Shown here: positions 1 to 42,291 of the stretch, piece after piece
How the letters are laid out: each line of letters opens with the position of its first letter
Position numbering within the stretch: the first letter of the stretch is position 1
Sequence record: NC_048177.1
Source: Escherichia phage Lidtsur
Length of the DNA: 42,291 bases
Direction: 5' to 3' (one strand)
The notes under the pieces: generated by a model
Seen by the model: only the letters and a program-made list of their open reading frames with translations
What the model was told of the DNA's origin: nothing
Databases searched by the model: none
Translations under genes and position numbers: made by a program

Positions 1-393
1 ATGTACCGTATCTATGCAAGCGCATATCGTCAGGCAAACGCTGAGTGTGTTAATCTGGCGCTTCATTGCAAGGCACTGCGAACGGTGCAGGATATGTTCG
101 GAGTGATTCCGGTCACACTGACAGGCAAGTTTAACGATGCGTATGAGTTAAGCATGGTCTTCCCTGTCGATGGAATCTACGAAATCAGACAGGCTGTTAA
201 GCTGTTCTGTAAAGCCTTTGAACAGGACTGCATCATGGTAGTGACCGATGATGATGATGCAATCTTCATGGATTCACCATATCCGGGCAAGCCTGCTGGC
301 AAGTTTGTCAGCAAGACTGAGGCCGAAATGGAAGCCGGGCAATTCACTGCTTGGACTTACGATGGTGAGCAATTTTGGGTAGTGGAGGCATAA
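1..393 (+). CDS. hypothetical early protein (130 aa)
   Basis: ORF starts at ATG at position 1; a GGAG Shine-Dalgarno (CAACTGGAGAAATAACT) lies at the last bases of the window, so the gene is intact only if the contig is circularly permuted; acidic DDDD stretch; no recognisable domain. Confidence 0.5.
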   Translation: MYRIYASAYRQANAECVNLALHCKALRTVQDMFGVIPVTLTGKFNDAYELSMVFPVDGIYEIRQAVKLFCKAFEQDCIMVVTDDDDAIFMDSPYPGKPAGKFVSKTEAEMEAGQFTAWTYDGEQFWVVEA

Positions 394-4315: not shown

Positions 4316-4322
4316 GGTGACT

Positions 4323-4472: not shown

Positions 4473-4477
4473 CTATC

Positions 4478-4765: not shown

Positions 4766-4766
4766 T

Positions 4767-5964: not shown

Positions 5965-6032
5965 ATATTTACTCATGGCATTCTTGATGGATGCCATTAT
6001 GAAAGTATCTGTTAAGCACAACCGGAGGAAAT

Positions 6033-6233
6033 ATGCTCAAAGTATTAGCGCTGTTTGTAGCTGTAGTTATTTTGTGGGGTGTTGCGTGGGTAGGTATCGC
6101 CTATCTTATTGCACCCTATATCGGGACGCAGCTTACTGGTGTGTTAGGCACACTGCTTGGCTTCGTCGTGGGCGCAGTTGGTATGACCAAGTGCATCGAC
6201 TATGGCTGGGGTAAAGGGTGGATTAAATGGTAG
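6033..6233 (+). CDS. small membrane protein, two predicted TMDs (66 aa)
   Basis: CGGAGGAA SD; sequence is almost entirely two hydrophobic helices. Confidence 0.5.
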   Translation: MLKVLALFVAVVILWGVAWVGIAYLIAPYIGTQLTGVLGTLLGFVVGAVGMTKCIDYGWGKGWIKW

Positions 6234-6679
6234 ACAAGACTTATGCGATGGGCGACCGCATCCGACAGGTAGGCTCCAACTGTGGCACACGCCGTGGCTC
6301 TGAGGGTATCGTAATATATGCGCGGCCTGATGCCCCGAAGGGTGAAACGAAATACCTCGTTCACTGGTACATGTCAGAGAACGGCTACCGCAGGACTGAG
6401 CCAGAGATAGGGCGCTACAAATCTGACTGGCTGACGTCCAACACCATACTCATAGGCGAGCCTGAACCTGCACCTGAGCAGGGCCGGGGCAGATTCATGT
6501 GCCTCGTTGAAGGTGGTACGACGCCGCCGCGACTCATCCACACTACCGAAGAGTCAGCTCGCCGTGAAGCTGAGCGTCTATCCAGAGTGCATGGTGTCAC
6601 AGCCCGCGTCTTGCGTGTCGTTGGTAGTGTCAACATGAAGCGCATAGTGCAGTACGAGCCGGAGTGGGACAACGAATGA
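6227..6679 (+). CDS. hypothetical protein (150 aa)
   Basis: Track ORF. Confidence 0.55.
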   Translation: MVDKTYAMGDRIRQVGSNCGTRRGSEGIVIYARPDAPKGETKYLVHWYMSENGYRRTEPEIGRYKSDWLTSNTILIGEPEPAPEQGRGRFMCLVEGGTTPPRLIHTTEESARREAERLSRVHGVTARVLRVVGSVNMKRIVQYEPEWDNE

Positions 6680-7389
6680 GAAAGACAGTGAGCAATGACG
6701 AATGGCCGGAGCTGGCGAGGCGTCTGCCGATAGGACAAAAGCGTCGGACGTTTCACGCTTGCTCGCGCTCATTCAGTAAGACCAACTTTGAGTATGGCCG
6801 GAACAGCGAGGGCGTATGGTGCAAGTGCCACCGCTGCGGCCACTCTGATTTTCAACCCCTCAACCATGCACCATACATACCGCCAGCCAAAGAGCAGGTG
6901 AAGGTGCCGACTGATGTTGTCCCTCTCATTGAGGTGATAGCCAAACAGCCGGGACTTCTGCTGCCAGCGCTGGAGAAGAATGAGCTGCTGCCACACCTCA
7001 GTGTGCTGACTGCCAGCCCAACGTATGGGCGTATCTATCTGCCGGATAATTCGGCCAGCTACTGTGGTCTGGATTATACCGGGCGGCAGTTCATACCGTG
7101 GCGCTCGCCACACAACCACCTAATGGCAGTGACTGTCACCAACCACGATGAGGATGAGACGCGAGGCATATGGATTTACGATGCCGCCGCCGACTATCTT
7201 GAGCATGTGCGTAGAGGTGACAGAGTGGATGGCAACGCCGCGTTCGTAGCCAATGCAGATGATGCCACCATACGCGCTCTGGTTAGCGTTGTGCTGGCCA
7301 ATCGCTATGAAGTGATATCAATACACCACCACCAAAGCGACAGGCTCAGACGCGAGCTGAGAGTGTGTGGCAGGGTGCGAACAATATAG
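6676..7389 (+). CDS. putative DNA primase (zinc-binding N-terminus)
   Basis: ATG overlapping upstream stop (ATGA); Cys/His cluster HAC...CKCHRC near N-terminus; sits directly upstream of the helicase as in phages with split primase and helicase. Confidence 0.5.
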   Translation: MRKTVSNDEWPELARRLPIGQKRRTFHACSRSFSKTNFEYGRNSEGVWCKCHRCGHSDFQPLNHAPYIPPAKEQVKVPTDVVPLIEVIAKQPGLLLPALEKNELLPHLSVLTASPTYGRIYLPDNSASYCGLDYTGRQFIPWRSPHNHLMAVTVTNHDEDETRGIWIYDAAADYLEHVRRGDRVDGNAAFVANADDATIRALVSVVLANRYEVISIHHHQSDRLRRELRVCGRVRTI

Positions 7390-7398
7390 GAGGGTAAT

Positions 7399-8664
7399 GT
7401 GCTTGATAAACTGTTGCTCTCTGTCATGCGCGAGCGGGGTAAATACAATACCCTGCGACACGCCATTCCAGAGGACATGATGAGCCAGACTACCAGCTAC
7501 ATGCTGCGTGCATATGGCTCATACTTCGAGGCGTTTCCAGATTCAGACTATGTGGATATGGATACGCTTGGCACACACGTCCGGCTCAAGACGGGTAGCA
7601 CGCCTGAACAGATGGCGGCGTTTGAGTCTTTGTGCCAGCAGCTCCGGGAGTATCAACCAACCAAGCCGCAGGTAGAAGGAATCATTGACCAGTTAGTCGA
7701 GCTGGATACAGCGGGCAAGGTTAACCTCCTTGCTCAGAGGTACGACAATGGTGAGGAAATTGATTTTATCTACGAGCTTGGGCGTCTTGCTGAGGGCGCA
7801 CGTCGCAGCCGGGGGCAGTCATCTATCACTGATTACGTGGACGATGATGTGGTTGATATTATTAATCGCACGGATGACGACCACGGTTTCAAGTTCGGTC
7901 TTATCTGCTTGCAAGACAGTGTGCGCGTGCTTCTCCCCGGCGACTCAGTTGCCATCGGCGCTCGACCCGACAGCGGGAAGACTTCCTTCCTCGCGTTTAA
8001 CCTTACGAGAATGGCGGCGCAGGCGCACAAGCTGCATCCGGGCAGGCCAATCCTGTGGTTCAACAACGAGGGGCAGGGCATCAATATCATCCCGCGCATC
8101 TACCAAGCGGCGTTGAAGTGCACGCTCCCTGAGTTGAAGGAGCTGGGTAAGGACAGAAAGAAACTCCACGAGAAGTATGCCAAGGCCATCGGTGCGCCAG
8201 CCAACATCATCCGCGTCAAGGATATGCACGGCGCTACTCTGGCCAAGGCTGAGCAAGTCATTGAAGCAATGAATCCCTGCATCGTGGTATGGGATATGCT
8301 GGCCAACTTCAAGCTGTCCGTGGCTGACGCGAACAGTAACAAAGCCAGCCAAGTCGAGCAACTCTGGCAGGAGGTACGTGAGCTGGCGGTGCGGCATAAC
8401 TTCGTATCAATAGCTACGGTTCAAGTATCCGCAGATGGTGCCGACGATATGTTCCCTGCGCTGGATGCACTCAAGGATTCCAAGACTGGTATCCAAGGTG
8501 CGACCGATGTGATTGTCATGCTCGGTTCGGTTGACGACCCGGCGCTGGCAGCACGGCGCGGTGTGAGCACTCCGAAGAACAAGCGGCAGGTGGCTGGGCG
8601 TCCATCCAACATCCGGTCGCAGGTTCATTTCTATGCAGACAAATGCCAATTCGAGGATATGTAA
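7399..8664 (+). CDS. DnaB-like replicative DNA helicase
   Basis: GTG start after AGGAGGG; Walker A GARPDSGKTSFL (DnaB-type) and Walker B-like IVVWDML. Confidence 0.85.
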   Translation: MLDKLLLSVMRERGKYNTLRHAIPEDMMSQTTSYMLRAYGSYFEAFPDSDYVDMDTLGTHVRLKTGSTPEQMAAFESLCQQLREYQPTKPQVEGIIDQLVELDTAGKVNLLAQRYDNGEEIDFIYELGRLAEGARRSRGQSSITDYVDDDVVDIINRTDDDHGFKFGLICLQDSVRVLLPGDSVAIGARPDSGKTSFLAFNLTRMAAQAHKLHPGRPILWFNNEGQGINIIPRIYQAALKCTLPELKELGKDRKKLHEKYAKAIGAPANIIRVKDMHGATLAKAEQVIEAMNPCIVVWDMLANFKLSVADANSNKASQVEQLWQEVRELAVRHNFVSIATVQVSADGADDMFPALDALKDSKTGIQGATDVIVMLGSVDDPALAARRGVSTPKNKRQVAGRPSNIRSQVHFYADKCQFEDM

Positions 8665-9008
8665 TGAGCACAATCAAAGTAGGCGACCGCGTTCGTAACT
8701 GTGATACCAAGAGCGTGCACTACGGCGCGACTGGTACTGTCGTTGACATTGATGCCAAGTGCATCAGCATCAAGCGTGATGATGGCGCTCGCGGCTCCGG
8801 CATCTACGGCTCGTGGACTGCACGACCTGAATGCTGGGAGCTGCTGGTAGAGGCCGCAGAGCCTGTACCCCAGCCGGAAGACTGGAGCTATGGTGAGGCT
8901 GAGCGTCTCTATCAGGAAGCGTGCACTGCCATTGAGACGTACAATCAGTACGTTCTGCGCAAGCCGACGACCAGCTACATGACTGCTGGCCTGCCGAGCA
9001 AATGGTAA
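8664..9008 (+). CDS. hypothetical protein (114 aa)
   Basis: Internal ATG of track ORF overlapping the helicase stop by 1 nt; GAGGA SD. Confidence 0.5.
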   Translation: MSTIKVGDRVRNCDTKSVHYGATGTVVDIDAKCISIKRDDGARGSGIYGSWTARPECWELLVEAAEPVPQPEDWSYGEAERLYQEACTAIETYNQYVLRKPTTSYMTAGLPSKW

Positions 9009-9172
9009 AGGGGCGCAGCTACCGCCGTTGCTCTTGCGGCGGATGCCTGCTGGTCGAGCAGGTCAAGGGCAAGGCCACTGGCAAGACGCTGGTGATTTAT
9101 GAATGTGAGAAGTGTGGGGAGAAGCAGTATGGAAGAACGCACGTATCGAGCAGTACCTTTAAGCCTGCGTGA
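9002..9172 (+). CDS. possible small zinc-ribbon protein (56 aa)
   Basis: Read from sequence: MVKGRSYRRCSCGGCLLVEQVKGKATGKTLVIYECEKCGEK...; two Cys pairs (CSCGGC, CEKC); overlaps neighbours. Confidence 0.3.
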   Translation: MVKGRSYRRCSCGGCLLVEQVKGKATGKTLVIYECEKCGEKQYGRTHVSSSTFKPA

Positions 9173-9320
9173 GCAAGAGATAATCCGAGCGCAGTACCGC
9201 AAGGGTGACTCGTTCCGTGGCGCTGAGGCGCTGGCCGAGCGTTTCAATGTACCGCCTGCCGACGTAGTGGCAGTGGTTAACTACACCTACCGCAAGGGGA
9301 AAAAGAAAAATGTTCAGTAA
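9129..9320 (+). CDS. hypothetical protein (63 aa)
   Basis: Internal ATG of track ORF 9099-9320 after GGGGAG; overlaps the candidate zinc-ribbon ORF in another frame. Confidence 0.35.
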   Translation: MEERTYRAVPLSLREQEIIRAQYRKGDSFRGAEALAERFNVPPADVVAVVNYTYRKGKKKNVQ

Positions 9321-9981
9321 TGCAGAAGCAAAGCGTGCATGGGCGCGTGAGATTTGTCATGTGTTGCAGGGCGAAGGGTTGAGCTTTGTTGTCGCAGGGG
9401 GTGGGGCAAGGGACACTGCGCTTGGCATCGAGCCTAAAGACTTCGACGTTGTGGTGTATGGCTGGGGCAGCAACGTTGATGAGATAGCTCGTAAGCTGGA
9501 CTGGCTTGATAGTCTGCTTGAGCGGTATGCCCGCGAGCAGGAAATCAACTACGAGTACATGCCAAGCTATCATGATGCAGCAGAGGGTGGCGACTTCGGC
9601 TCCCGGCTGTACGGCGTGTACAAGGTTGGCCCGGTCGATGTAATCATAAGCAAGTGCGGCGCGTGGTCGCAGGTGCTGGCTGAGTTCGACTTAAACCTGA
9701 ACCAGTTCTACTTCCCGTCCAGCATCCCGCGTTACTCTGGTCAGTACAGCCGTGACCCCGGAGACTTCATGGCGTACCCGTACCATCCAGACCTGACGGC
9801 TGCGGATGTTGAATGGTATCCGGCTGTTGCCAATCAAGCTCAGTCGTATGATGAGCTGCTTACTCTGCGAGTCGTACGTCCTGATACCAGCCTCAGCCGC
9901 AGGGTGTACATCGAGCAGAAGCACCACGACAACTACGAAGCACTGGTCGCGTTTGTTAAGCGCAAGTCCGGTGCATCATGA
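9310..9981 (+). CDS. nucleotidyltransferase with CCA-adding enzyme / poly(A) polymerase-type head domain
   Basis: VVAGGGARDTALGIEPKDFDVVV closely matches the class II tRNA-NT/PAP signature (cf. E. coli PcnB [20 protein letters not shown]); only 223 aa, so head-domain-sized. Confidence 0.6.
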   Translation: MFSNAEAKRAWAREICHVLQGEGLSFVVAGGGARDTALGIEPKDFDVVVYGWGSNVDEIARKLDWLDSLLERYAREQEINYEYMPSYHDAAEGGDFGSRLYGVYKVGPVDVIISKCGAWSQVLAEFDLNLNQFYFPSSIPRYSGQYSRDPGDFMAYPYHPDLTAADVEWYPAVANQAQSYDELLTLRVVRPDTSLSRRVYIEQKHHDNYEALVAFVKRKSGAS

Positions 9982-10029
9982 TTACCTTCGTGGGGTTGTG
10001 TGCAGTTTTCCTGTTAGTGGAGTGGTACT

Positions 10030-12489
10030 GTGAGAGTGCAGATAATCGACGTCGAGACAGAGAACAATGATTGGTTCGGTGAGCTGGCATCGCCACGCTG
10101 CCCGGACAATTATGTTGTCATGCAAGGCCAACGAGACTGCGAACTGACCAAGGATGGCTGGGAGTTCTATGAGCGCGAAGAGTATCGGTACTCGTCTAAG
10201 GAAGACTGGGCAGAGAACAAGTCTCTGCACCTGCATCCTGATACGAAGATGCTGGTAGCCCATAACGCGCCGTACGAATTAAGCTGGTGGTTCATGCACT
10301 ATGGGGATGAGTTCATTGACTTCCTCAAACGTGGTGGCCGTGTGTTCTGTACAGCGTACGCCGAGTACCTGCTGACACACCAGCAATCCCAGTACCCATC
10401 CTTGAACGAGACTGCCCCGAAGTATGGCGGTACTCACAAGGTTGATGCAGTCAAAGCAATGTGGGAGGCAGGTTATCTCACAAGCCAGATTGACCCTGAG
10501 CTGTTGAGTGAATACTTATCAGGGCCGAGCGGCGATATCGAGAACACCACGAAGGTGTTCGTCGGGCAATGGAAGGAACTTGAAAAGCAAGGGATGTTGA
10601 AGATGGCGCTCACTCGCATGGAAGGTATGCTGATGTGGGCGTACATGATGCACTCCGGTCTGCACGTAGACCGCGAGGTTGCCGAGCGCAATCGCCAAGA
10701 GCTGATGACGCAAATCAATGAGCTGACTGATAAGCTGCTGGACTACCTGCCGGACGACATGCCGCAGGAAGCCCGCGAGCAATTCAAGTTCACGTCTGCT
10801 TATCACATGAGCGCATTCGTATTCGGCGGCGTGTTCAAATACAAAGCCCGTGTACCGCGCACGGACGACGGTGGCAATCCTATCTATGTGAAGGTTGACG
10901 CACCGCTGTTCAAGCGCGGCAAGGAGAAGTGGTTGAAGCACAAGGATGAGTGCGTGTTCGATGAAGAGTCCGGGCTATGGTATGACCCGGTAGAGAAGGT
11001 GCACCAGTGTCTTTACACGGCTGGCAAGTTCAAGGGTGAACCCAAGTACGAGCGGCTGGCCACCGATGAGGTGGACATGAAGTGGGGCGAGCTGACCTGT
11101 AAGCTGCCCGGTCTGCTGCGCGACAAAGATAGGCGAGCGCGTGAGATTGCAGACAACCTTCTGTGGGAAGACCCGAAGCGTCCGGGCGAATATCTGCGGC
11201 GCACTGGTGATTGGGTAGGTAAGCGTAAGCTGGCTGATGGCACCCCGGTGTTCAGTACAGCAGGCGAGGTGCTGGACATTCTGGCAGCGCGTAAGATTCC
11301 CGGCGTCGTTGAGATTGCCGACCGCGCTAAAGCACAGAAAGACCTTGGCACCTACTACCTGAGCGAGACGTTCGATGAGGAAGGTAATGTTACTGGTCAG
11401 TCTGGTATGATGCAGTTCATCCAGCCGGACGGTATCGTACACCACACCATCAACATGACCGCCACCGAAACTACTCGACTCTCATCGGCTCGACCAAATA
11501 GCCAGAACCTTCCACGCAAAGGCACGAGTAAAGTTAAGCAGATGTTCACCTCCCGGTTTGGGCCGGACGGTCGCATCGTTGAGGCTGACTACTCAGCGCT
11601 GGAAGTAGTAGGGCTGGCGGGATTCAGTAAGGACAGGAACCTCGTCAAAGCTCTGATGGATAACATCGACATGCACTGTATGCGTCTTGCCGCGCAGCTC
11701 AATGAGGACTACGAAGAGGTCAAGCGTAAGGCTAAGGATGAGTCACATCCTGAGCACGAGCGCTATAGCCAGATGCGTACAGACATTAAGCCCAAGGCAT
11801 TCTCGTATCAGTATGGTGCGACGGCGCGAGGTATCGCGTACTCCACTGGCTGCACTGAGGAAGAGGCGCAGGCATTCATCGACAACGAGAAAGCCCTGTT
11901 CCCGGAAGTGGAATCATGGTTTGAATCGGTTATCTTCCCGGCTGTGGAGCGCAGCGGTCAGAGCAATATCTTCAAGGAGCAGGATGAGAATGGACGGTGG
12001 TGCGTCTACCGCCGTGGCTTCTTCAAGTCTCCGGGTGGTACGTGTTACTCATTCCGTCAGTATGAGAAATGGGATAGCGCAGCCCGCAGTTACTTGATGA
12101 TGTACAAGCCAACCCAAATGCGTAACTATCCGATTCAGGGTGAGACAGCGTTTTGGGTGCAGGGTATCGGTGGCCTGTTGTTCCGCTGGCTGCTGGCCAA
12201 TGACTTCTTTGGTGGGCGCGTGGTTCCCATCAACCAAGTGCATGACGCATTCTATTTCGACATAGCGCCTGACTGCCCGCATGAGTTCTTCGTTGGACTC
12301 AAGGCAATCATGGAGTGCATCCCGGAATACTTCAACCACGTATGGCCTGAGTATGACCTGAGAGTTCCGTTCCCGGCAGAGGTGGAAGCAGGCCCAAGCA
12401 TGTATGAGAAGCACCACGTAGAGACGACAGCCGAAGAAGTGCTGGAGTTCAAATGTAATTTCCTGAAATCTAAGGGTATCAAGATATGA
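10030..12489 (+). CDS. family A DNA polymerase with 3'-5' exonuclease domain
   Basis: GTG start after GGAG; Exo I IIDVETE; Pol motif A DYSALEVV, motif B KAFSYQYGA, motif C QVHDAFYFD; 819 aa. Confidence 0.9.
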   Translation: MRVQIIDVETENNDWFGELASPRCPDNYVVMQGQRDCELTKDGWEFYEREEYRYSSKEDWAENKSLHLHPDTKMLVAHNAPYELSWWFMHYGDEFIDFLKRGGRVFCTAYAEYLLTHQQSQYPSLNETAPKYGGTHKVDAVKAMWEAGYLTSQIDPELLSEYLSGPSGDIENTTKVFVGQWKELEKQGMLKMALTRMEGMLMWAYMMHSGLHVDREVAERNRQELMTQINELTDKLLDYLPDDMPQEAREQFKFTSAYHMSAFVFGGVFKYKARVPRTDDGGNPIYVKVDAPLFKRGKEKWLKHKDECVFDEESGLWYDPVEKVHQCLYTAGKFKGEPKYERLATDEVDMKWGELTCKLPGLLRDKDRRAREIADNLLWEDPKRPGEYLRRTGDWVGKRKLADGTPVFSTAGEVLDILAARKIPGVVEIADRAKAQKDLGTYYLSETFDEEGNVTGQSGMMQFIQPDGIVHHTINMTATETTRLSSARPNSQNLPRKGTSKVKQMFTSRFGPDGRIVEADYSALEVVGLAGFSKDRNLVKALMDNIDMHCMRLAAQLNEDYEEVKRKAKDESHPEHERYSQMRTDIKPKAFSYQYGATARGIAYSTGCTEEEAQAFIDNEKALFPEVESWFESVIFPAVERSGQSNIFKEQDENGRWCVYRRGFFKSPGGTCYSFRQYEKWDSAARSYLMMYKPTQMRNYPIQGETAFWVQGIGGLLFRWLLANDFFGGRVVPINQVHDAFYFDIAPDCPHEFFVGLKAIMECIPEYFNHVWPEYDLRVPFPAEVEAGPSMYEKHHVETTAEEVLEFKCNFLKSKGIKI

Positions 12490-13418
12490 CCAAGCCGAGT
12501 GTATTGAATCGCTTTAATGCTACCGTAGAGCAGTTCGTTGAAGAAGAAGGTGTGGACTTTAACGAAGCCGTCGCTGGTGGTGGTGGTAAGCTGATGCCGG
12601 AAGGTAAGGCACTGGCACGCCTGATTCAGTATGTTGAAGTTGGGCCGCAGCCCATCAAGCAGGATGCAAGCAAGCCGCCTGTCAATAAGTTCTTCCTCAA
12701 GTTCGCAGTGTGGGGTAAGGGCAAAGACAAGCAATCCACCTTCCATGAAGTTGTGGATGGTAAGATGGTTCCCGGCGTAATCCGCACTCAGATGATTGCT
12801 GTGAAGAAAGACCTGAACAGTAAGTCAGGGGCATACAAGCTGTTCAAACGTATGAACCCGGACAAGACTGCTAAGCATTTCGCTCAGCTCATCAACGGCA
12901 CATTCATCCTGCCTATCGTCCACAACGAAAGCGGTGAGGGCGAGAACAAGAAAGTCTACGCTAACATTGACTTAGAGAATATCAGCCTCGCGGTCAACCC
13001 GGTAACTGACGAACCGTTTGACGTGCCGGAAGTGGAAGACGAATCTCTGTTCAAGCTGTTCCTGTGGAACCGTCCGAGCAAAGAGGACTGGGAATCCCTG
13101 TACATCGAAGGTAAGAACGATGAAGGGAAATCGAAGAACTGGATTCAGGATACCCTGCTGTCCAGCCCTGAGTTCCCCGGCTCTCCGCTCGACCTGCTGC
13201 TGAATGGCGGTGGCGCTGGTTCGGCTATCTCTGAACTGCCTGAGCTTGACGAGCCTGAGCAGGAAGAAGTCAAAGAGGTAACGCCGCCGCCGGAAGAGCT
13301 GCCAGTCAAAGGCAAGGGTGGTGCCAAGGGTGCCAAGGGTGCGAAGAAAGGTAGCGAAGAAGCCAAGCCTGAGCCAGACGTAACTGGTGAAGCTGACTTC
13401 GGACTGCCATCCCTGTAA
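12486..13418 (+). CDS. hypothetical protein with K/G-rich repeat and acidic C-terminal region (310 aa)
   Basis: ATG overlaps polymerase stop (ATGA); low-complexity GKGGAKGAKGAKKG followed by acidic tail; function unknown. Confidence 0.6.
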   Translation: MTKPSVLNRFNATVEQFVEEEGVDFNEAVAGGGGKLMPEGKALARLIQYVEVGPQPIKQDASKPPVNKFFLKFAVWGKGKDKQSTFHEVVDGKMVPGVIRTQMIAVKKDLNSKSGAYKLFKRMNPDKTAKHFAQLINGTFILPIVHNESGEGENKKVYANIDLENISLAVNPVTDEPFDVPEVEDESLFKLFLWNRPSKEDWESLYIEGKNDEGKSKNWIQDTLLSSPEFPGSPLDLLLNGGGAGSAISELPELDEPEQEEVKEVTPPPEELPVKGKGGAKGAKGAKKGSEEAKPEPDVTGEADFGLPSL

Positions 13419-13453
13419 TCGGTGTAGGCACAAGGATGTGCCGTGGAGGTTCC

Positions 13454-13651
13454 ATGCGTGAACTTGAAGAGGGCGAGGTCATCTACTACGACGACCCGCG
13501 CAGCATGTCAATAGTAATCAAAAGCCGAAACGAGAGAGTAGAGATGAGCTATGAGATGTTCTTCACGCTCAAGCGAATGTTTGAACAACAGGTAATGGAG
13601 AGAGTCGATGAGCAAATTAAGTCGCTTGTTGTCGGCGGCGGGGGCTATTGA
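13454..13651 (+). CDS. hypothetical protein (65 aa)
   Basis: Internal ATG of track ORF 13436-13651 preceded by GGAGG. Confidence 0.4.
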   Translation: MRELEEGEVIYYDDPRSMSIVIKSRNERVEMSYEMFFTLKRMFEQQVMERVDEQIKSLVVGGGGY

Positions 13652-14585
13652 TGAAGACCAATTCGACGGCTACGTCTCAGGGCGCATACTTCTTTGCGAC
13701 GCAGACTCAACAGTGTATGTGGCCGCAGCCACCACGAAGAGTATTGAGACGGCGAAGACGCGCTTCTGCTCCGGCGTGCTGACTGCTAAGTTCCTTGCCA
13801 ATGCACAATCGGTGCGTATCGAGCTGACTGCTGCGGAGTGCAAGAAAGCTGGCCGCTACAAGCTGCGGGGTGTCAAGCTGTATCAGGGCAACCGGGACAA
13901 AGAGAAGAAGCCGGGACTGGTTGAGCCATTGCGCAAAGCGATTGGCCGCAACATGTTCAACGTACCTGATGGTGAGGATTGGTACGTCCACCTGAACTTT
14001 GAGTTCGAGGCTGACGACACCTTAATCATGGACGCTTGGACTATCGGTATTGACGACGCTGTTATCTATAGCGCTGACAAAGACCTGCGTTGCTGGCCGG
14101 GTAGATTCCTTGACCCGTACGACAACAAAGTGCTGGAGCCATGCAAAGGTATCGGCACCTTGTGGTGGCATGAGACGAAGAGTGACAAGTCTCTGGTCGG
14201 CCACGGCCCCCTGTTCTTTTGGGCGCAGATGCTGATGGGCGATTCCGCCGACAACATCTCAGGCGTCAAGGGCATTGGCAAGCAGACAGCTTACGACATG
14301 CTTGAGCAATATTGCGAGAGCGATGATGAGTCTGCTGTTGCTGAGTTCGTGCTTCGTGAGTACATGAGGCGTGACCAAAATCCGTGGCCGGAAGCCGTAG
14401 CATTATGGCTGTACCGTACGCCGACCTACTCATTCGCAGCCCACTTAAACACGCTGACCTTGAGCAAGGAGCTGCGTGTCTGGCTGCATAAGAAACTGGG
14501 TGAGGAATGGTATGCAGAAAGTGACTGGCGCGACTCTATTGCAGCTTCGGAAGAATGCGATGGGTTGCAGTTGCCCGCTCTGTAA
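13608..14585 (+). CDS. 5'-3' exonuclease (FEN / RNase H-like flap endonuclease family)
   Basis: GDSADNISGVKGIGKQTA matches the helix-hairpin-helix signature of 5'-3' exonucleases; acidic EADD and SADKD clusters. Confidence 0.8.
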   Translation: MSKLSRLLSAAGAIDEDQFDGYVSGRILLCDADSTVYVAAATTKSIETAKTRFCSGVLTAKFLANAQSVRIELTAAECKKAGRYKLRGVKLYQGNRDKEKKPGLVEPLRKAIGRNMFNVPDGEDWYVHLNFEFEADDTLIMDAWTIGIDDAVIYSADKDLRCWPGRFLDPYDNKVLEPCKGIGTLWWHETKSDKSLVGHGPLFFWAQMLMGDSADNISGVKGIGKQTAYDMLEQYCESDDESAVAEFVLREYMRRDQNPWPEAVALWLYRTPTYSFAAHLNTLTLSKELRVWLHKKLGEEWYAESDWRDSIAASEECDGLQLPAL

Positions 14586-14892
14586 TCAGCCAATGACAGA
14601 CCTCAAGCTGATGGTTGTTGACCACGACCACAAGACTGGGGAAATCAGGGGTGTCATTTGCAGGTGGTGCAATGCGCAGCTTGGCAAGATGGAGAACGCC
14701 GCGAACAGAGCCAAGCGGGAACTGACCGTCGAAGAGTGGTTGGCCAATGCCATGACGTGGCGGCTGACCGCTCGCAGTGGTTTGATGTATCCGACCCACA
14801 AGTCGGAAGCAGAGAAGAAAGAGGCCGCCGCGCTTAAACGTAAGAAAGCGGCAGCGACAAAGGCACGCGCTGTAATCACGAAGGGGAAATAA
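14512..14892 (+). CDS. endonuclease VII-like Holliday junction resolvase
   Basis: CPLCN...VVDHDHKTGEIRGVICRWCNAQLG matches the endonuclease VII zinc-binding His-Me finger pattern; internal ATG with GAGGA SD preferred over the track GTG at 14476. Confidence 0.75.
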   Translation: MQKVTGATLLQLRKNAMGCSCPLCNQPMTDLKLMVVDHDHKTGEIRGVICRWCNAQLGKMENAANRAKRELTVEEWLANAMTWRLTARSGLMYPTHKSEAEKKEAAALKRKKAAATKARAVITKGK

Positions 14893-16013
14893 TGAAGCTG
14901 TCCGATGAGCAGTTGAAAGAAGATATGCTGGCAGGTCTTGGCACCAAGGCCATCGCCGACAAGCACGACATGACAGAAAGCGCTATCCGCTACCGTAAGC
15001 GCCAGCTTGCAAAGGGTGGTTGGAGTCCTGACCACGACATGACCAAGCAGGTGCCTGAGCCGTACATGGTTAAGGGTACGTCAACGCTGTATGACAAAGA
15101 CGGCAACGTCGCACTCCAGTGGGTTAAGACGGCGATAGACCATGAGCGTGAGCTGGCTCTGTTGCAGGAAGCAGTCGATGCTATCTGTGAAGAGATTAAG
15201 CCGGAGCAACCACGCCAGTACCGTGGCGGGCCAGCACCGAAAGAGTTGCTCGACCTGTTCATCCTGACAGACTACCACCTCGGTATGCTGTCTTGGGCGG
15301 AAGAGACTGGCGCTGACTGGGATATGAAGATTGCGGAAGACCTGCTGGTCAAGTGGTTCGCTGCTGCAATCGAAGCCGCGCCCCCGGCGCAAGTGGCCAT
15401 CCTCGGTCAGCTCGGCGACTTCCTGCACTGGGATGGTCTGGACGCAGTGACCCCATCGAGTGGTCATGTGCTGGATGCAGACACCCGGTTCCAGAAGCTG
15501 GTGCGTGTAGCCATTCGTGCGCAGCGCCGCATCATCGCAATGCTGCTGGACAAGTTCCCGCAGGTTCATGTGGTGTGTGCTGAGGGCAACCACGATATGG
15601 CCAGCTCTATCTGGTTACGTGAGATGCTGTACACGCTGTACGCTGATGAGCCTCGCGTCACTGTTGACCGTAGCCCTGACCCGTACTACTGCTATGAGCA
15701 CGGCGAGACTGCGCTGTTCTTCCACCACGGCCACAAGCGCAAAGCTGAGCAGCTTGAGACTGTGCTGGTGGCGAAGTTCCGCGAAGTGTATGGCAGAACC
15801 AAACATGCTTACGCTCACGTCGGGCACCTCCACCATAAGAAAGTGTTGGAGACTCCGGTGATGATTATCGAGCAGCACCAGACGCTGGCAGCTAAGGATG
15901 CTTATGCCTCGCGTGGCGGCTGGTTGAGTGAGCGTAGCGCCAGCGTTATTACTTATCACACACGATATGGTGAGGTTGCTCGCTTCACTATCAGCCCGGA
16001 GATGTTAAGTTGA
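14892..16013 (+). CDS. metallophosphoesterase-type DNA exonuclease with N-terminal HTH-like segment
   Basis: GNHD and FFHHGH motifs typical of calcineurin-like phosphoesterases; N-terminal LGTKAIADKHDMTESAIRYRKRQL resembles a helix-turn-helix. Confidence 0.6.
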   Translation: MKLSDEQLKEDMLAGLGTKAIADKHDMTESAIRYRKRQLAKGGWSPDHDMTKQVPEPYMVKGTSTLYDKDGNVALQWVKTAIDHERELALLQEAVDAICEEIKPEQPRQYRGGPAPKELLDLFILTDYHLGMLSWAEETGADWDMKIAEDLLVKWFAAAIEAAPPAQVAILGQLGDFLHWDGLDAVTPSSGHVLDADTRFQKLVRVAIRAQRRIIAMLLDKFPQVHVVCAEGNHDMASSIWLREMLYTLYADEPRVTVDRSPDPYYCYEHGETALFFHHGHKRKAEQLETVLVAKFREVYGRTKHAYAHVGHLHHKKVLETPVMIIEQHQTLAAKDAYASRGGWLSERSASVITYHTRYGEVARFTISPEMLS

Positions 16014-16228
16014 GCAGGACACTGTACTCAGATAGTGTGGTGCAGCTCAAAGAGGACGGCCTCTCGATTGACTGGGAGGCTCGTACTCAGGTTGACCTGT
16101 ATCCCGATGGCACCGTCTGCATCTCGCAGGACGGAGAAGAAGTATGGCTCCCTTGGGCCTACGTCAAAGATATCATCTTTGCTTTAGAGGAAGCTCACGA
16201 TGCAACTGAAAGACACCGTGGTTGTTGA
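16010..16228 (+). CDS. hypothetical protein (72 aa), TTG start, doubtful
   Basis: Track ORF with non-ATG start overlapping both neighbours. Confidence 0.25.
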   Translation: MSRTLYSDSVVQLKEDGLSIDWEARTQVDLYPDGTVCISQDGEEVWLPWAYVKDIIFALEEAHDATERHRGC

Positions 16229-16715
16229 CCTTGATGGTACGCTGGCCGATGGCCGCTGGCGATTACACCTGATGCCGCCGCCTGAACGCCGCCACTTAGA
16301 CGAGGCTTGGGCTGAGTTCAATCTGGCTGGTATTGATGACCCGCCGTTTCAGGACACCATTGATATTGTGAACGCACTGGCCCTAACGTATCGCATTATC
16401 ATCCTGACCGGGCGCGGGGCTATTGCTCGTGAAGTAACTGAGCAGTGGCTTGAAGACAACGGCGTCGTTTATGACAAGCTCATCATGCGTGAGATTGGCG
16501 ATTGCCGTCAGGACACCGAGGTCAAGCGTACCGCGCTGGAAGACATTGGCCTCGACAACATCGTATGCGCATTCGACGACCTACCGCACATCGTTGACTT
16601 CATGCGCAGCCTTGGCCTGACCGTGTACGAGGTTACTCGCTATGAGGATGGCCACGATTATGTGCGTGCAAATGCCAAGTACAAAGATGGGGAGTATCAG
16701 GATGAGCAAGCGTAA
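16200..16715 (+). CDS. HAD-superfamily phosphatase
   Basis: HAD motif I VVVDLDGTL, motif II IIILTGR, C-terminal FDD; GAGGAA SD. Confidence 0.6.
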   Translation: MQLKDTVVVDLDGTLADGRWRLHLMPPPERRHLDEAWAEFNLAGIDDPPFQDTIDIVNALALTYRIIILTGRGAIAREVTEQWLEDNGVVYDKLIMREIGDCRQDTEVKRTALEDIGLDNIVCAFDDLPHIVDFMRSLGLTVYEVTRYEDGHDYVRANAKYKDGEYQDEQA

Positions 16716-17067
16716 TGAGGCAGCACCTGAAAACAAAGTAGCAGGTGGCCCCGGTGGTATGAAGTATGATGGCGGCAAGCCTCGCATGGCGCTGGTGTTC
16801 GACGGTATGCCACGAGCGCTGGAAGCTGTCGGGCAGGTGCTGACCTTCGGTGCTCAGAAGTATGCAGCTCATTCGTGGCAGACCGTGCCGGAAGGTGAGG
16901 AACGCTACAAGTCTGCGCTGCTGCGCCACCTGACGGCGGTTGGCCGGGGTGAGGAACTGGACAGTGAATCTGGCCTGCACCACCTCGCACATGCAGCGTG
17001 CAACGCGCTGTTCATTCTGGAACTGGAACTGAGGAAACGTGATGAGTCGTTATCAAAAAGCAATTGA
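16702..17067 (+). CDS. hypothetical protein, possibly nucleotide diphosphohydrolase-like N-terminal domain
   Basis: Internal ATG after GGGGAG; MKYDGGKPRMALVF...VLTFGAQKYAAHSWQ matches from memory a phage domain annotated as dATP/dGTP diphosphohydrolase N-terminal; unverified. Confidence 0.4.
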   Translation: MSKRNEAAPENKVAGGPGGMKYDGGKPRMALVFDGMPRALEAVGQVLTFGAQKYAAHSWQTVPEGEERYKSALLRHLTAVGRGEELDSESGLHHLAHAACNALFILELELRKRDESLSKSN

Positions 17068-17308
17068 AGACACAGTGTTAGACCAGAAAGAGTGCGCTGC
17101 CTGCCACGGCAGTGGCACCTTCACGGGCATGACTATCCGGCATGAAATCGTGCAGATGGAGTGTGAAGCCTGTGGTGGTACTGGTACGTGTGACTCCCTG
17201 CTGCAACTCTCTGTGCTGCGCGATTTAGGTATGCGCAAACGTGTTGAGCCGGGTTACGCCGAACCAACATTCATTGATGTGCCGAACAACAAAGACGATT
17301 ACGAGTAA
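17042..17308 (+). CDS. small zinc-ribbon protein (88 aa)
   Basis: Two CxxC pairs (CAACHGSG, CEACGG); GAGGA SD. Confidence 0.45.
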   Translation: MSRYQKAIEDTVLDQKECAACHGSGTFTGMTIRHEIVQMECEACGGTGTCDSLLQLSVLRDLGMRKRVEPGYAEPTFIDVPNNKDDYE

Positions 17309-17314
17309 GGGGAT

Positions 17315-19747
17315 ATGATGGATTTGCTGGCAGAACAGATTCGACTGGAAGAAGAAGCCCGCGCACGCCATCGCGCGGGGTGGTTAGACAACATCAAAGC
17401 AGCGATGGATGAAGGGCGGGCATCGGCTGTGCCGCTGTTGCAGCGTGCAATGGTTAAGGCTTATCCGACTGTCGAAGCAGCTATGCAGGAAATCCTGAAT
17501 GAGAATACTCGCGGCTTTGGTGCGCAGTACCGGACGCACATGCGGGAGATTGGGGTGAAGACCTGCGCTACTCTGGCGCTCAGCATGGCAATGTCAGGGG
17601 CGGTAGAGAAGGTCGCTGTTACGCAGCACCTACGCAGCATGGGGCAGGCTCTAATGGCTGAGGTGGTGTACCACAAAGCCTCAGCCAGAGGTGCGCGTGA
17701 AGCGGCTTACATGCAGCGTGTGGGGCAAGACGTTAAGCGCTCCAAGTCGAAGTCTCCCAATCACATCTACAACAAGGCCCGCGCATCGGCGGCTAACGTT
17801 GGGGTGCACATGGATGTGTTGCCTCAGCGTGCGCTCATCACAATCGGTAAGATGATGATGCGTGCAGTCGAACCAACAGGTCTGGTCAAGACTATCCGTA
17901 TCGGTGGCAGCGCCAGACAGCGTGGCACTGCACACTTCGCTCTGCATGATGATGTGATTATCATGCTCAACGACTGGATTAAGCTGCCCGATATGACAGT
18001 AGGCTGCTACCCAGTGATGATTATCCCGCCTGCGGAAATTAATCCCAATGGGCTTGGTGGTATGTGGCACTCTCCGGGGCAGGCGGCGACGTATCAGGCA
18101 ATCAGCCGACTGCGCCACAAAGAGTACCGCGCTCAGAAGGTAGACCCGCTACCCATTATCGAGCCGTGTATGATGCTCAGTGGCACGCCGTTCCGTATCA
18201 ATAAGATGGTGCTGGAGTTCCTACAAAACAACCACACTGGCGTTATGGGCCTGCCTGCTGCGCCAGTGGAACCTAAGCTGCCATTCACAATCCCGGAAGG
18301 TGTGAGCTTTGCTCAGTACATCAGCAGGTTCCCGCCTGAAATGCAGCAGAGGATGGACGCTGAGGCGCATGAATTTAAGGTTAAAACCCGCATGTACCAT
18401 AATGAGTACCGCAGGTTTACAACCAAGGTGCAGGCGCTCGGAAGTGCGCTGGCTGAGGCTAAGCGCTACTGTGCATACGAGCGTATCTACCTGCCGACAT
18501 ACGCCGACACTCGTGGCCGAATCTACTACGCATCGTCTCTGAATCCTCAAGGTATCGACGCAATAAGGGCGCTGCTAGAATTAGCCGACGCTGTGCCGCT
18601 TGGCAGTGAAGGGTTGTTCTGGCTGAAAGTGCATGTGGCCAACTGCTTCGGCTATGACGCCACTGACTTTGAAGACCGGGCGGCTTGGACTGACAAGACC
18701 CTGCCAAGACTTCGTGAAGCCTGCCGACTGCCGGAGGCTTACGACTCATTCTGGTCTGAGGCCGATAGTCCTCTGTGTGCATGGGCAGCTTCTGTAGAGC
18801 TGGTGCGTGCGCTGGATAGCGGCAACCCGGAAGAGTACCCGTGCCGCGTTGTTACGCAGTGGGATGCAACTTGCTCAGGTCTACAGCACCTGTCGGCTAT
18901 GCTCCGTGATGAGGTGGGCGGTGCTGCCGTCAACCTGATTAACTCGCCGGGGCGCAAAGCCGATATCTACCTCAAGACTGCTGACGCAGCAATGGCAGCA
19001 CTGCGCGAGTCTGAGGCATCCTGCAAGACTGAGCTGGGGCAGTGGCTGTTGAAGATTGGCATCCAGCGTGCGATGGCCAAGAAGCCTGTAATGACCTACG
19101 TTTACGGGGCAACCCGCCACGGTATGGTTGATTACTATGCCCTGTACCTGCGCGAGAACAACATCCCATTGCCTCCCGGACACAGCCTGTTCGAGTGTGC
19201 GATGTTCATTGCCGGGATTATGTGGGACGCTATACCGCGAGTGGTTCCTAAAGCGGCAGAGCTTATGGCTTGGTTGCAATCTCTGGCGACTATGGTGGCA
19301 GAGAAAGGAGAGTACGTTGAGGTGATAGCTCCGTCAGGCTTACGGATGGTTAATCTGTATCAGGCTTCGAAAGAGGCAGCTATGGGCCTGAACCTAATGG
19401 GTGTGCACGGCATTAAGATTAGGGAATGGCTGGATAAGCCGGACTCCCGTAAGTGTGCAGCAGCTATCTCACCCAACTTTGTGCACGCTATGGATGCCAG
19501 CCACATGATGAAAGTGCTGTGGGAAATGTGGAATAACGGGGTTTACATGGTGTCTATCCATGACTCCTTCGGCGTTGCGGCAGCACACGCTGGGCTGTTG
19601 CACAGAGTCATCCGTGAAAAATTCGTGCAGATGTACGAGGAACATGACCCTATTCAGCAACTTGCTGAAAGATATGGTGTTGAGCCTCCGGCTAAAGGCC
19701 AGTTGGATATCAAAGAGGTGCTGAAATCTACCAAGTTTTTCTGCTGA
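17315..19747 (+). CDS. single-subunit DNA-dependent RNA polymerase (T7-like)
   Basis: WDATCSGLQH (motif A), AKKPVMTYVYGATRHG (motif B) and VSIHDSFGV (motif C) parallel T7 RNAP catalytic motifs; 810 aa. Confidence 0.9.
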   Translation: MMDLLAEQIRLEEEARARHRAGWLDNIKAAMDEGRASAVPLLQRAMVKAYPTVEAAMQEILNENTRGFGAQYRTHMREIGVKTCATLALSMAMSGAVEKVAVTQHLRSMGQALMAEVVYHKASARGAREAAYMQRVGQDVKRSKSKSPNHIYNKARASAANVGVHMDVLPQRALITIGKMMMRAVEPTGLVKTIRIGGSARQRGTAHFALHDDVIIMLNDWIKLPDMTVGCYPVMIIPPAEINPNGLGGMWHSPGQAATYQAISRLRHKEYRAQKVDPLPIIEPCMMLSGTPFRINKMVLEFLQNNHTGVMGLPAAPVEPKLPFTIPEGVSFAQYISRFPPEMQQRMDAEAHEFKVKTRMYHNEYRRFTTKVQALGSALAEAKRYCAYERIYLPTYADTRGRIYYASSLNPQGIDAIRALLELADAVPLGSEGLFWLKVHVANCFGYDATDFEDRAAWTDKTLPRLREACRLPEAYDSFWSEADSPLCAWAASVELVRALDSGNPEEYPCRVVTQWDATCSGLQHLSAMLRDEVGGAAVNLINSPGRKADIYLKTADAAMAALRESEASCKTELGQWLLKIGIQRAMAKKPVMTYVYGATRHGMVDYYALYLRENNIPLPPGHSLFECAMFIAGIMWDAIPRVVPKAAELMAWLQSLATMVAEKGEYVEVIAPSGLRMVNLYQASKEAAMGLNLMGVHGIKIREWLDKPDSRKCAAAISPNFVHAMDASHMMKVLWEMWNNGVYMVSIHDSFGVAAAHAGLLHRVIREKFVQMYEEHDPIQQLAERYGVEPPAKGQLDIKEVLKSTKFFC

Positions 19748-19832
19748 AAAAAGTGTTATATTCTATTGACTTAAATGAAAGTAACTGAAAGTGGTATACC
19801 CTGTATGATTATCATCATTGAGAGAGTGACTC
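19748..19832 (+). promoter_or_regulatory. intergenic region between RNAP and late genes; candidate phage-RNAP late promoter
   Basis: One of only two non-coding gaps in the late half; AT-rich with TTGACT and GGTATACC elements; promoter consensus not determinable from one genome. Confidence 0.3.
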
Positions 19833-20015
19833 ATGAAAGAATCTCCAGTTGATAGAGTAACCTTCAACAAAGCTCAGTTAGCTTACCTTGAGAAACGGTT
19901 CGGTACGTGGTCTGATGTAGGTAAGACGATAGTACCAGAGACAAACCTGACTCAGCTCAATAGGGAAGCAGGTAAGCAAGAGGTGCTGGACTGTATCCGT
20001 GAGAGGACAGTGTAA
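19833..20015 (+). CDS. hypothetical protein (60 aa)
   Basis: Track ORF; GAGAGAG SD. Confidence 0.4.
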   Translation: MKESPVDRVTFNKAQLAYLEKRFGTWSDVGKTIVPETNLTQLNREAGKQEVLDCIRERTV

Positions 20016-40294: not shown

Positions 40295-40830
40295 TGACTA
40301 ACTTTGAAATCTGTATGAAGTTCACCGGGCTGGCTGAGGGTGGCTATACCAAGCTGCCCGGTGACACTGGAGGGGAAACCAATCATGGAATTAGTGACGC
40401 TCGTGATGGAAAGCTGGATGGTCGAGCTTGCGGTGTCCCTACTGGGCTTGGCGGGACTATTTGTGTTCCTATCAAGCAGCTCACCAAAGAGCAAGCCGAA
40501 GCTATCTATCGCCGGGACTACTTCACCCCAATCCGTGGTGACGAGTTACACCCTGCGATTGCATGTGCCGTGTTCGACTTCGGTGTCAACTCCGGCGTCG
40601 CCCGCGCAGCTAAAGCTCTACAGCGGGTATGCGGTGTTGCACAGGACGGTGTTATCGGTGCTGCAACCGTGGCAGCGGCCAAGCGTCTGGAACCTCACTC
40701 CGCAGCAGCATCCATCTGTGACATTCGTATTGAGTTCCTAAAGGCTTCTACAGCCCCGACAATCGTTCGGTATAGGGATGCCTTGGTTGCTCGTGCAAAA
40801 CGCTGTAGCGCTTACTGTGCGACGTTATAG
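40294..40830 (+). CDS. endolysin, GH108-type N-terminal domain
   Basis: FTGLAEGGYTKLPGDTGGETNHGIS matches the EGGY...GG.T..GI signature of GH108 muramidases; last gene before the terminal non-coding region; no N-terminal TMD. Confidence 0.75.
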   Translation: MTNFEICMKFTGLAEGGYTKLPGDTGGETNHGISDARDGKLDGRACGVPTGLGGTICVPIKQLTKEQAEAIYRRDYFTPIRGDELHPAIACAVFDFGVNSGVARAAKALQRVCGVAQDGVIGAATVAAAKRLEPHSAAASICDIRIEFLKASTAPTIVRYRDALVARAKRCSAYCATL

Positions 40831-40899
40831 GGGCATTGAAAGCTGGGACATTGAACAGGCGTAATACCCCGGCTTGAAAATTGACTATTTGTGCGTGGG

Positions 40900-41410
40900 C
40901 CTCCCTCGACTCGAAGGAGCGCCTGCGCCCCCGTACGCCTGTGCGCGTGCGCGTGCATGACGTGTGCGCATTATGCGCGTGTGCCTGCGCGTGCGGTATT
41001 GCTCGCGTGCGTGCGGTAACAGCTCGCGCGTGCCCGTTTCCATTGTCGCGGTGTGGCGTGCTGTGCTCTGCGCGGTGCTGTGCCACTGCTGGCTGTGCCA
41101 CTGCTACCACTGGACGCGCCTGCGCTGGCCTGCGCTGGTATCGGCTCCGGTCGTGGCGGGTATCTATCTCTTTTGCCTGCGTGCTGCGCCTGCGTCCTGT
41201 CACTGCCTGCTAGCGCCTGCTATCTGCCTGCGCTCGCCTGCCTCCAGCTACTCCAGCTAATCGCGTCACTGCTACTAGCCGTTGCTAGCCGTGATACTTG
41301 CTATCCGTTCGCGTTCTCTCGCTATCCACTGCGTGTCCAGCTCGCTCCGCTCCGCGCTCCGCTACCGCACTGCGTGCTGCGTCGCTTACGCTGCGTATCG
41401 CTTACAGCTT
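40900..41410 (+). repeat. A-depleted GC-rich short-repeat tract, probable terminal-repeat / packaging region
   Basis: About 500 bp almost free of A on the + strand, built from reiterated TGCGCG, CCTGCGC, GCTGCG, GCTCCGC units; non-coding; sits between last and first gene. Confidence 0.5.
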
Positions 41411-41570
41411 ATACTGTAACAGTTACTTTCATTTACTCACTGATTTATAAAGAGTTTTAGACGGTTATTAGCTACTGATTGAGCTATTCAAGTATCTATC
41501 CAATCAAATATTTAATCCTATTGAATACATACACTTACCTACATTTTGAGCTATTCAGTGAAAATAATTC

Positions 41571-41599
41571 TTGCAATGCTGTTTGTGATTTGCTGTAAT
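41571..41599 (+). promoter_or_regulatory. sigma70-type early promoter candidate P1
   Basis: -35 TTGCAA (41571-41576), 17-bp spacer, -10 TGTAAT (41594-41599). Confidence 0.55.
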
Positions 41600-41675
41600 T
41601 CATCTCGCCGGGTAGCAATGCAGCGCTACACGGTGGGCTAGATGGTTAGCCAGCTCTTTAACAATCTGGAGTGTA

Positions 41676-41704
41676 TTGACAAGCGAGTCTCACTATGCTG
41701 TAAT
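41676..41704 (+). promoter_or_regulatory. sigma70-type early promoter candidate P2
   Basis: -35 TTGACA (41676-41681), 17-bp spacer, -10 TGTAAT (41699-41704). Confidence 0.65.
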
Positions 41705-41756
41705 ACGCTCCAGATTGACAGGGCAAGCAAGCCTGACAGTCAGTAGTAAAAAGTGG

Positions 41757-41786
41757 TTGACAAGCCGATTCAAGATGTGATGTAAT
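41757..41786 (+). promoter_or_regulatory. sigma70-type early promoter candidate P3
   Basis: -35 TTGACA (41757-41762), 18-bp spacer, -10 TGTAAT (41781-41786); P2 and P3 share the TTGACAAGC core. Confidence 0.6.
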
Positions 41787-42291
41787 CGGCACCGAGTTGA
41801 AAGGATGAAAAGCATCCTGCTCTGAGTGAACGCAAACTGGCCGCGTAGTGTCACGGCTCACTGGGTATCCGCCGCAGGTTGGAACTGGGTGAGGCATCGC
41901 CGAAAGGCAACGGTATCGCAACATTGCTAACGCCGTAGGGGTAGCGCCCGATGCAGGGAACAGAGAAGCGCGATAGACGCAGCGCAGTATCAGTACAATC
42001 CCAAACGTCTTATAAGCATTGTAGACAGTAGGGGACGTAGCAAAACACACTCGACTTTGAGCTGGCGCGTAGCAGGTTGCGCAGGGTATGACTGAGTGTT
42101 GAGCGGAGTCGCTGAAAGATACTTGAATCCGATGATAAATGCCGGATTATGCGAAATGGGCGGGGCGATTTTTCAGGGTAGTGAATCCGACAAGCCATTC
42201 CATGCCGAACAAACCTAGTACGCTACTGGTACGGCGCGTCACAATGGGTTCACTATCCACCTGAAAATAGCCAACAACTGGAGAAATAACT

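Follow-up and report, generated by a model that had tools for sequence, protein, structure and literature searches.

Tandem predicted sigma-70 promoters with an invariant G at -11 upstream of the first gene of Escherichia phage Lidtsur and its Bonnellvirus relatives

The early region of phages T7 and T3 contains tandem rightward sigma-70 promoters, which are located a few hundred nucleotides inside the left terminal repeat and are separated from one another by ~80–140 nt. In T7, the promoters A1, A2, and A3 are found at positions 498, 626, and 750, and gene 0.3 begins at 925. Their -10 elements (GATACT, TAAGAT, and TACGAT) keep A at position -11 and are not preceded by TG. A boxA 17-mer is present at 813–829, i.e., after all three promoters and between A3 and gene 0.3, the leader from A3 comprises ~175 nt, and a long hairpin (R0.3) precedes the first gene. 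The latter has an anti-restriction function in these phages, and gene 0.3 of T3 encodes a SAM lyase. A related arrangement is found in the Pantoea phage LIMEzero (Waewaevirus, Stentvirinae), wherein two sites, TTGTCA-17-TGTAAT (807–835) and TTGACG-17-TGA-TGTAAT (1405–1433), carry the annotation 'putative Pantoea specific promoter', while a third annotated 'promoter' (928–974) is a boxA-like string (CGCTCTTTATACAATCTGG). Sigma-70 promoters of the extended -10 kind carry TG at -15/-14, separated from the hexamer by a single base, and the classical members of this group thereby make up for a poor -35 element. Furthermore, an Escherichia coli transcription start has been experimentally mapped behind a TGTAAT -10 element in the AhdI C/R promoter (TGGACT-18-TGTAAT; PMC2275141), which is a single, weak promoter of unrelated origin that depends on the C-protein activator and is devoid of the extended -10 TG.

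The window, i.e., the whole 42,291-nt stretch of DNA of Escherichia phage Lidtsur analyzed here (NC_048177.1; 54.6% GC), is a circularly permuted genome of the genus Bonnellvirus (Autographiviridae, now Autoscriptoviridae/Stentvirinae). Its closest relatives are members of the same genus, including J8-65, smaasur, forsur, usur, glasur, megetsur, and Kc261. Promoters are unmentioned in the two papers on the genus, and a literature search on J8-65 yielded nothing on transcription. All long open reading frames (ORFs) of the window are located on the + strand, and the promoter sites described below are co-directional with all genes, three of which are relevant here:

1..393, + strand: gene 1, S-adenosylmethionine lyase (SAMase, anti-restriction; Pfam PF23780, E=1.3e-26)
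10030..12489, + strand: family A DNA polymerase gene
17315..19747, + strand: single-subunit RNA polymerase gene (PF00940, E=2.4e-87)

Gene 1 opens the early transcription unit, and its homologues in J8-65 and the '-sur' phages are annotated as anti-restriction SAMase; an anti-restriction gene is thus placed first as in T7 and T3, and it is a SAM lyase as in T3. The J8-65 record begins at the physical end of the genome, with a terminal repeat at 1–259, the homologous promoter sites at 687–1036, and gene 1 at 1468. The window being permuted, the left-end position of the Lidtsur cluster is derived from this homology, whereby the cluster is placed just inside the left terminal repeat, is directed into the first (early) genes, and is predicted to lie about 650–900 nt from the physical left end. 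The region at 40900–41400 is G+C-rich and A-poor, and contains short degenerate repeats (GCCTGCGCTGG, two copies of GCTGTGCCACTGCT, and two copies of GCGTGCGGTA). Its counterpart in J8-65 is the terminal repeat (1–259) and the sequence beyond it, and the 'hypothetical proteins' that ORF callers have annotated in the counterpart of some relatives are probably spurious.

Three sites are recognized ahead of the window junction:

41571..41599, + strand: P1; -35 TTGCAA (41571–41576), 17-nt spacer, TG (41591–41592), -10 TGTAAT (41594–41599), predicted start ~41606–41607
41676..41704, + strand: P2; -35 TTGACA (41676–41681), 17-nt spacer, TG (41696–41697), -10 TGTAAT (41699–41704), predicted start ~41711–41712
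41757..41786, + strand: P3 (P4 of the relatives); -35 TTGACA (41757–41762), 18-nt spacer, TG (41778–41779), -10 TGTAAT (41781–41786), predicted start ~41793–41794

The initial annotation, made from the letters of the window, had described three + strand promoters combining TTGCAA, TTGACA, and TTGACA with a 17–18 bp spacer and one and the same TGTAAT, and reading of the sequence returned the same coordinates and hexamers; the spacing, given as about 80–105 bp, corresponds to start-to-start distances of 105 and 81 nt. The sites had also been said to point across the window junction to the gene at position 1. The junction is indeed contiguous, since the end of the window (...CAACTGGAGAAATAACT) and its start (ATGTACCGT) form a string that is unbroken in the relatives, and the gene reached is the SAM lyase gene. 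Likewise, the leader, estimated at roughly 500 nt, measures 505 nt from the last -10 element to the ATG. The proposed resemblance to the tandem host promoters at the left end of T7-like genomes is supported by the assignment of the genome to Autographiviridae, the position of the sites in J8-65, the co-directional genes, and the retention of the hexamers in 16 relatives.

All three sites additionally carry the extended -10 TG at -15/-14, reading TGCTGTAAT in P1, TGCTGTAAT in P2, and TGATGTAAT in P3, and the triplet before TGTAAT is TGC, TGC, and TGA, respectively. They resemble extended -10 promoters in this respect, although they differ from them in having a consensus -35 element as well, together with G at -11; the -35 element matches the consensus at only 4/6 positions in P1, which tells against the promoter reading, and at 6/6 in P2 and P3. 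On the + strand of the whole 42,291-nt window, TGNTGTAAT occurs only at P1, P2, and P3; on both strands, five matches were found versus 0.98 +/- 1.0 expected from shuffles. With up to two mismatches permitted, the fixed 29-nt pattern TTGACA-N14-TGNTGTAAT is found in the window only at P1 and P2 versus 0.15 expected from shuffles, P3 falling outside this pattern because of its 18-nt spacer. In a both-strand count over the 12 positions of TTGACA/TATAAT and 42 kb, at least 10 of 12 matches were reached on the + strand only by P2 and P3 (both 11/12). Canonical sigma-70 sites are fewer than expected in 1–20000 (7 versus 12.9 +/- 4.3 in shuffles), so that the P1–P3 cluster constitutes the only strong sigma-70-like signal before the early genes. 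A consensus promoter scanner did not list P1–P3, which would be in line with mere chance matches to a loose consensus; however, the sole cause of this omission is the demand of the scanner for A at position 2 of the -10 hexamer, while the expectation of 0.15 for the full pattern, the clustering of the three sites inside 216 nt, and their retention in 16 further genomes as well as in another genus all speak against chance. This explanation is refuted by the conservation, and its probability is considered negligible.

Conservation was assessed on 66 promoter instances in 17 genomes, i.e., the window and 16 relatives, with the P2 site of the window, which is a fused site (see below), left out of the -35 count. 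The same promoter motif is carried by 16/16 relatives. The -35 element of P1 is TTGCAA in 16/17 genomes and TTGCCA in the remaining one, and both TGTAAT and TG are kept at P1 in 17/17. At P2–P4, the -35 element is TTGACA in 49/49 instances; P4, which corresponds to P3 of the window, has TTGACA in 17/17 genomes and TGTAAT in 16/17. Over the whole set, the -10 hexamer is TGTAAT in 65/66 instances and TGAAAT once (P4 of smaasur), and TG precedes the hexamer in 66/66, most instances also fitting TRTG. The spacers, by contrast, have been replaced in sequence (10 variants at P1 and 7 at P4), although their length is always 17 or 18 nt, and the information content per column is highest precisely at the -35 element, the TG, and the -10 element. 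An A-rich stretch is located 5′ of the -35 element at each site, and the hexamer is followed by a pyrimidine-rich discriminator and a purine 7–8 nt downstream of the -10 element. Kept hexamers and TG with free spacers are the pattern expected of functional sigma-70 promoters, and other causes of such a pattern are hard to invoke. TGTAAT sites are also present in two LIMEzero-like IMG/VR contigs. Among the matches listed in an IMG/VR scan for TTGACA-N14-TGNTGTAAT, most were single and scattered.

The A-rich sequences 5′ of the -35 elements are a further likeness to T7, since AAAACGGTTGACA of Bonnellvirus is identical to T7 A3 and GTATTGACAA to T7 A2. At P1, they are part of a longer block:

41400..41570, + strand: AT-rich block upstream of P1, with a 23-nt direct repeat and, abutting the P1 -35 element on its 5′ side, an A-rich stretch (GTGAAAATAATTC)

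The sequence GAAAATAAT is kept 5′ of P1 in all relatives, and the AT-rich block looks like a putative UP element. The 23-nt direct repeat (family D1; 41468–41490 and 41535–41557, TT..CTAC....TTGAGCTATTCA) is present 5′ of P1 in only some relatives, others having CTTATCACTTTTCTTG at the same place; it may serve as a UP element, as an origin, or as a site for a host factor.

Most relatives carry four sites, whereas the window carries three. In an alignment of this region (A2; columns 183–320, window 41682–41704), the window has a 137-column gap, which extends from one shared copy of TATGCTGTAAT, in ancestral promoter 2, to the identical copy in promoter 3. P2 of the window accordingly has its upstream half and its spacer from promoter 2, and its downstream flank from promoter 3; the two ancestral promoters have been fused by a 137-bp deletion between these TATGCTGTAAT copies. 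In smaasur, the fourth -10 element is mutated instead (to TGAAAT), so that members of the genus have either three or four intact promoters. The fused site is enclosed by an inverted repeat:

41662..41677 (CAATCTGGAGTGTATT) and 41702..41717 (AATACGCTCCAGATTG), + strand: 16-nt inverted repeat I1 enclosing P2, arms 94% complementary

In the relatives, the arms of this repeat bracket P2 and P3 and are ~170 nt apart. The arms covary as two haplotypes, GGAGTG/CGCTCC in 8 genomes and GGTGTG/CACACC in 9.

On this evidence, P1–P3 are most likely early host-polymerase promoters of a podovirus of the phiKMV/T7 type, at which transcription would be started by the host polymerase; initiation by the sigma-70 holoenzyme and the start positions listed above are predicted from the sequence. 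They belong to a known kind of element, as the homologous LIMEzero sites have already been annotated as putative host promoters. Promoters for sigma-S, 32, 28, 54, and E were ruled out on consensus grounds, C at -13 in P1 and P2 being the only feature that recalls sigma-S. Phage-polymerase promoters were likewise ruled out, the motif being found nowhere else on the + strand.

The most peculiar feature of the sites is the -10 element itself. TGTAAT matches TATAAT at 5/6 positions, with T present at -7, and differs from it at position 2 only, which places G at -11 in all three sites. G is found at -11 in 66/66 instances and is never replaced by A, though neighbouring spacer positions vary freely. 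At the same position, A is found in T7 A1–A3 and in the best sigma-70-like left-end sites of LIMElight and KP34; all three sites of the window, unlike those of T7, read TGnTGTAAT. A at -11 is the most conserved and most critical base of the -10 element, and the base at this position is flipped out by sigma-70 to nucleate melting. TGTAAT is therefore not functionally 'near-consensus', because G occupies this most critical position. Alternative -10 registers that would restore A at -11 were considered, i.e., TAATNN with a 19–20 nt spacer, and AATNNN with TG at -15/-14 and a 20–21 nt spacer; both were rejected since they have no conserved T at -7 and their spacers are off the optimum.

The consequence of such a substitution has been reported for a promoter with a consensus -35 element and a consensus extended -10 element, wherein a change of -11A to G altered closed-complex binding less than 2-fold but the stable heparin-resistant complex was 'very low' (Schroeder et al.; PMC1919498). 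The architecture of this mutant promoter is exactly that of the Bonnellvirus sites. Difficulty in promoter escape is to be expected of a fully consensus promoter. The lack of any G-to-A change at -11 while adjacent spacer positions vary is read here as selection against completing the consensus, and the most likely role of G at -11 would be to prevent excessive tightness or strength in a promoter that otherwise matches the consensus fully; no other step of the interpretation is as uncertain, and as an alternative, G may be specifically required at -11. A different reading of the same base is that the sites bind the polymerase tightly and open poorly, acting either as conditional or 'parked' sites in need of a trigger (candidates being a protein ejected from the virion, an activator supplied by the host, or the topology of the DNA while the genome enters), or as polymerase sinks. 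Such behaviour would follow that of a similarly designed artificial promoter (consensus -35, TGn, T-G-TAAT), which binds the polymerase but forms little heparin-resistant complex, although the in vitro defect was obtained with truncated templates at room temperature, i.e., under conditions chosen to exaggerate effects (PMC1919498). The invariance of G is also in its favour, G to A being a transition, as are the activator dependence of the AhdI promoter, the sole mapped TGTAAT promoter found, and the long latent period (~60 min) of the bonnellvirus Kc261. However, the spacers contain no conserved candidate activator site, and no other good sigma-70 site is present upstream of the RNA polymerase gene, so that something at this locus must fire early. 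We regard poorly opening sites as unlikely and retain the reading of P1–P3 as early promoters.

The transcript predicted to start at P1 differs from those of P2 and P3 in carrying a boxA element:

41653..41664, + strand: rrn-type boxA (GCTCTTTAACAA), the only exact match in the window, between P1 and P2 and 11 nt 5′ of the P2 -35 element

The string GCTCTTTAACA at 41653–41663, ~47 nt past the predicted P1 start, fits the gamma-proteobacterial boxA consensus GYTCTTTAANA (PMC5725501). boxA is present in 15/16 relatives, and 11/16 read CACTGCTCTTTAACAAT, which is identical over 17 nt to the cac-boxA-spacer RNA of rrn (PMC2724277). The 17-mer GCTCTTTAACAATCTGG is identical in the T7 leader, where it is the boxA 17-mer at 813–829, and is common in viral contigs (>120 IMG/VR contigs). 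We infer that boxA serves as a NusB/NusE loading site on the P1 transcript. Unlike in T7, it is located between the first and second promoters and is thus carried by predicted P1 transcripts only.

Downstream of P3, the region up to gene 1 is occupied by a conserved leader:

41787..42291, + strand: non-coding conserved structured 5′ leader (alignment A1; 431–505 nt in the family, 505 nt here)
42164..42272, + strand: long imperfect hairpin of ~100 nt (helices 17–22), directly 5′ of the ribosome-binding site
42280..42283, + strand: Shine-Dalgarno sequence GGAG, 8 nt before the ATG at position 1, invariant in alignment A1

The leader of the transcripts would thus measure ~500 nt from P3 and ~690 nt from P1, and it is regarded as non-coding because of indels of 25 and 8 nt. 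RNAalifold on alignment A1 returned 109 pairs, 29 of which show compensatory (double) changes; 97% of the alignment cells are paired, versus 32–39% when the partners are slid by 1–3 columns, and the observed values are reached in 0/500 shuffles. For the window leader alone, the minimum-energy z-score is -0.56, which is not significant, and the case for the structure is consequently made by the covariation alone. Whole blocks of the leader are shared with LIMEzero, a member of another genus, in which the homologous leader and hairpin are likewise found downstream of the TGTAAT sites. A search of Rfam at E<=1 on 40800–42291 gave no match to the leader, the two matches obtained being chance miRNA matches in the terminal-repeat region only. 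The small ORF at 42139–42264 was rejected as coding in view of the absence of a ribosome-binding site, non-triplet indels, and non-synonymous changes in the alignment. The hairpin at 42164–42272 is kept into LIMEzero and the IMG/VR contigs L263 and L268, with compensatory changes in LIMEzero (GTAGTGAATCC/GGGTTCACTAT to GTAGTTCATCC/GGGTGAACTAT) and in L268 (UUUUCAGG/CCUGAAAA to CUUUCAGG/CCUGAGAG); two further IMG/VR matches to the anchor 17-mer (L265 and L267) lie inside genes and were dismissed as chance. By its position before the first gene and its form, this hairpin is probably an RNase III processing site comparable to T7 R0.3.

The structured RNA also bears on the reading of the sites as promoters. 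P2 and P3 are located inside the conserved structured RNA predicted to be transcribed from P1, which is a point against the promoter reading, because part of their conservation could serve the RNA. Carried further, TTGACA...TGTAAT might be kept for the leader RNA, for a replication origin or packaging signal, or as sites of another protein, with its promoter likeness being incidental. Such a role would account for the position of P2 between covarying inverted-repeat arms, the 80–90% conservation of the region from P2 to the ATG, and the strong covariation of the leader. Nevertheless, four independent copies keep the sigma-70 geometry, the upstream A-tract, and the downstream purine while their spacers share no sequence, and the hexamers lie outside the predicted covarying helices, save for 2–3 edge bases in this genome. 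Moreover, the same layout is found in T7, whose promoters are experimentally known. A role unrelated to promoters is considered very improbable.

With P1–P3 taken as early promoters, the following course of events is proposed. Once the linear genome has entered the cell with its left end, the -35/TG/TGTAAT sites with their A-rich, UP-like stretch would be bound by the sigma-70 RNA polymerase of the host, which would transcribe rightward via the ~500-nt structured untranslated leader into the SAM-lyase gene and onward across early and middle genes until the RNA polymerase gene is reached. The hairpin before the ribosome-binding site would be processed by RNase III, as T7 R0.3. A long untranslated leader is normally open to Rho termination. 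On P1 transcripts only, loading of NusB/NusE at boxA would render the polymerase resistant to Rho. The leader differs from that of T7 in its conserved structure and in its length, ~500 nt from P3, and the RNA polymerase gene is found 17 kb downstream, in the phiKMV-type order, and the host polymerase must therefore travel much further than in T7. The dense leader structure and boxA are a plausible counter-measure to Rho, the polymerase gene being so distant. A more far-reaching and rather doubtful proposal is that G at -11 defines a natural class of its own among phage early promoters, wherein the host polymerase would be captured tightly in a closed complex by way of the consensus -35 element, the extended -10 TG, and the UP-like tract, with opening only under a specific condition. 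This condition may be provided by a virion-ejected protein or by the topology or tension of the genome upon entry. The sites, boxA, and the leader would together constitute an entry module that is both timed and termination-proof.

Taken as promoters, the sites establish where the early transcription unit begins in Bonnellvirus phages, which are candidates for phage therapy against E. coli, Enterobacter, Kosakonia, and Cronobacter. They also extend the T7 layout of tandem host promoters, boxA, a processing hairpin, and an anti-restriction gene to the phiKMV-type lineage. The apparent selection for G at -11 sets the locus apart from an ordinary promoter cluster, and ~70 natural, otherwise-consensus extended -10 promoters with this base offer a ready test of the need for -11A in vivo. 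The conserved structured leader is unusual as well, and the RNA merits separate study.

LIMEzero differs from Bonnellvirus in the number of TGTAAT sites, which is two as against three or four, and in an extra ORF-like insert between the sites. The latter is an unannotated ORF at 990–1336 with a plausible ribosome-binding site (tgaggtaactatcATG), which is located between the annotated early promoters and is absent from Bonnellvirus. In the window, the first three genes are each followed by similar 3′ hairpin elements at 470–500, 1058–1100, and 1446–1490, one example being CTGACAGCCCATTCACTGAGTGGGCTGGATTGTAACC and a second copy CTGACAGGCCATTCAATGAGTGGCCTGAATTGTTAACC; these post-gene hairpins may be RNA processing sites or phage-polymerase signals.
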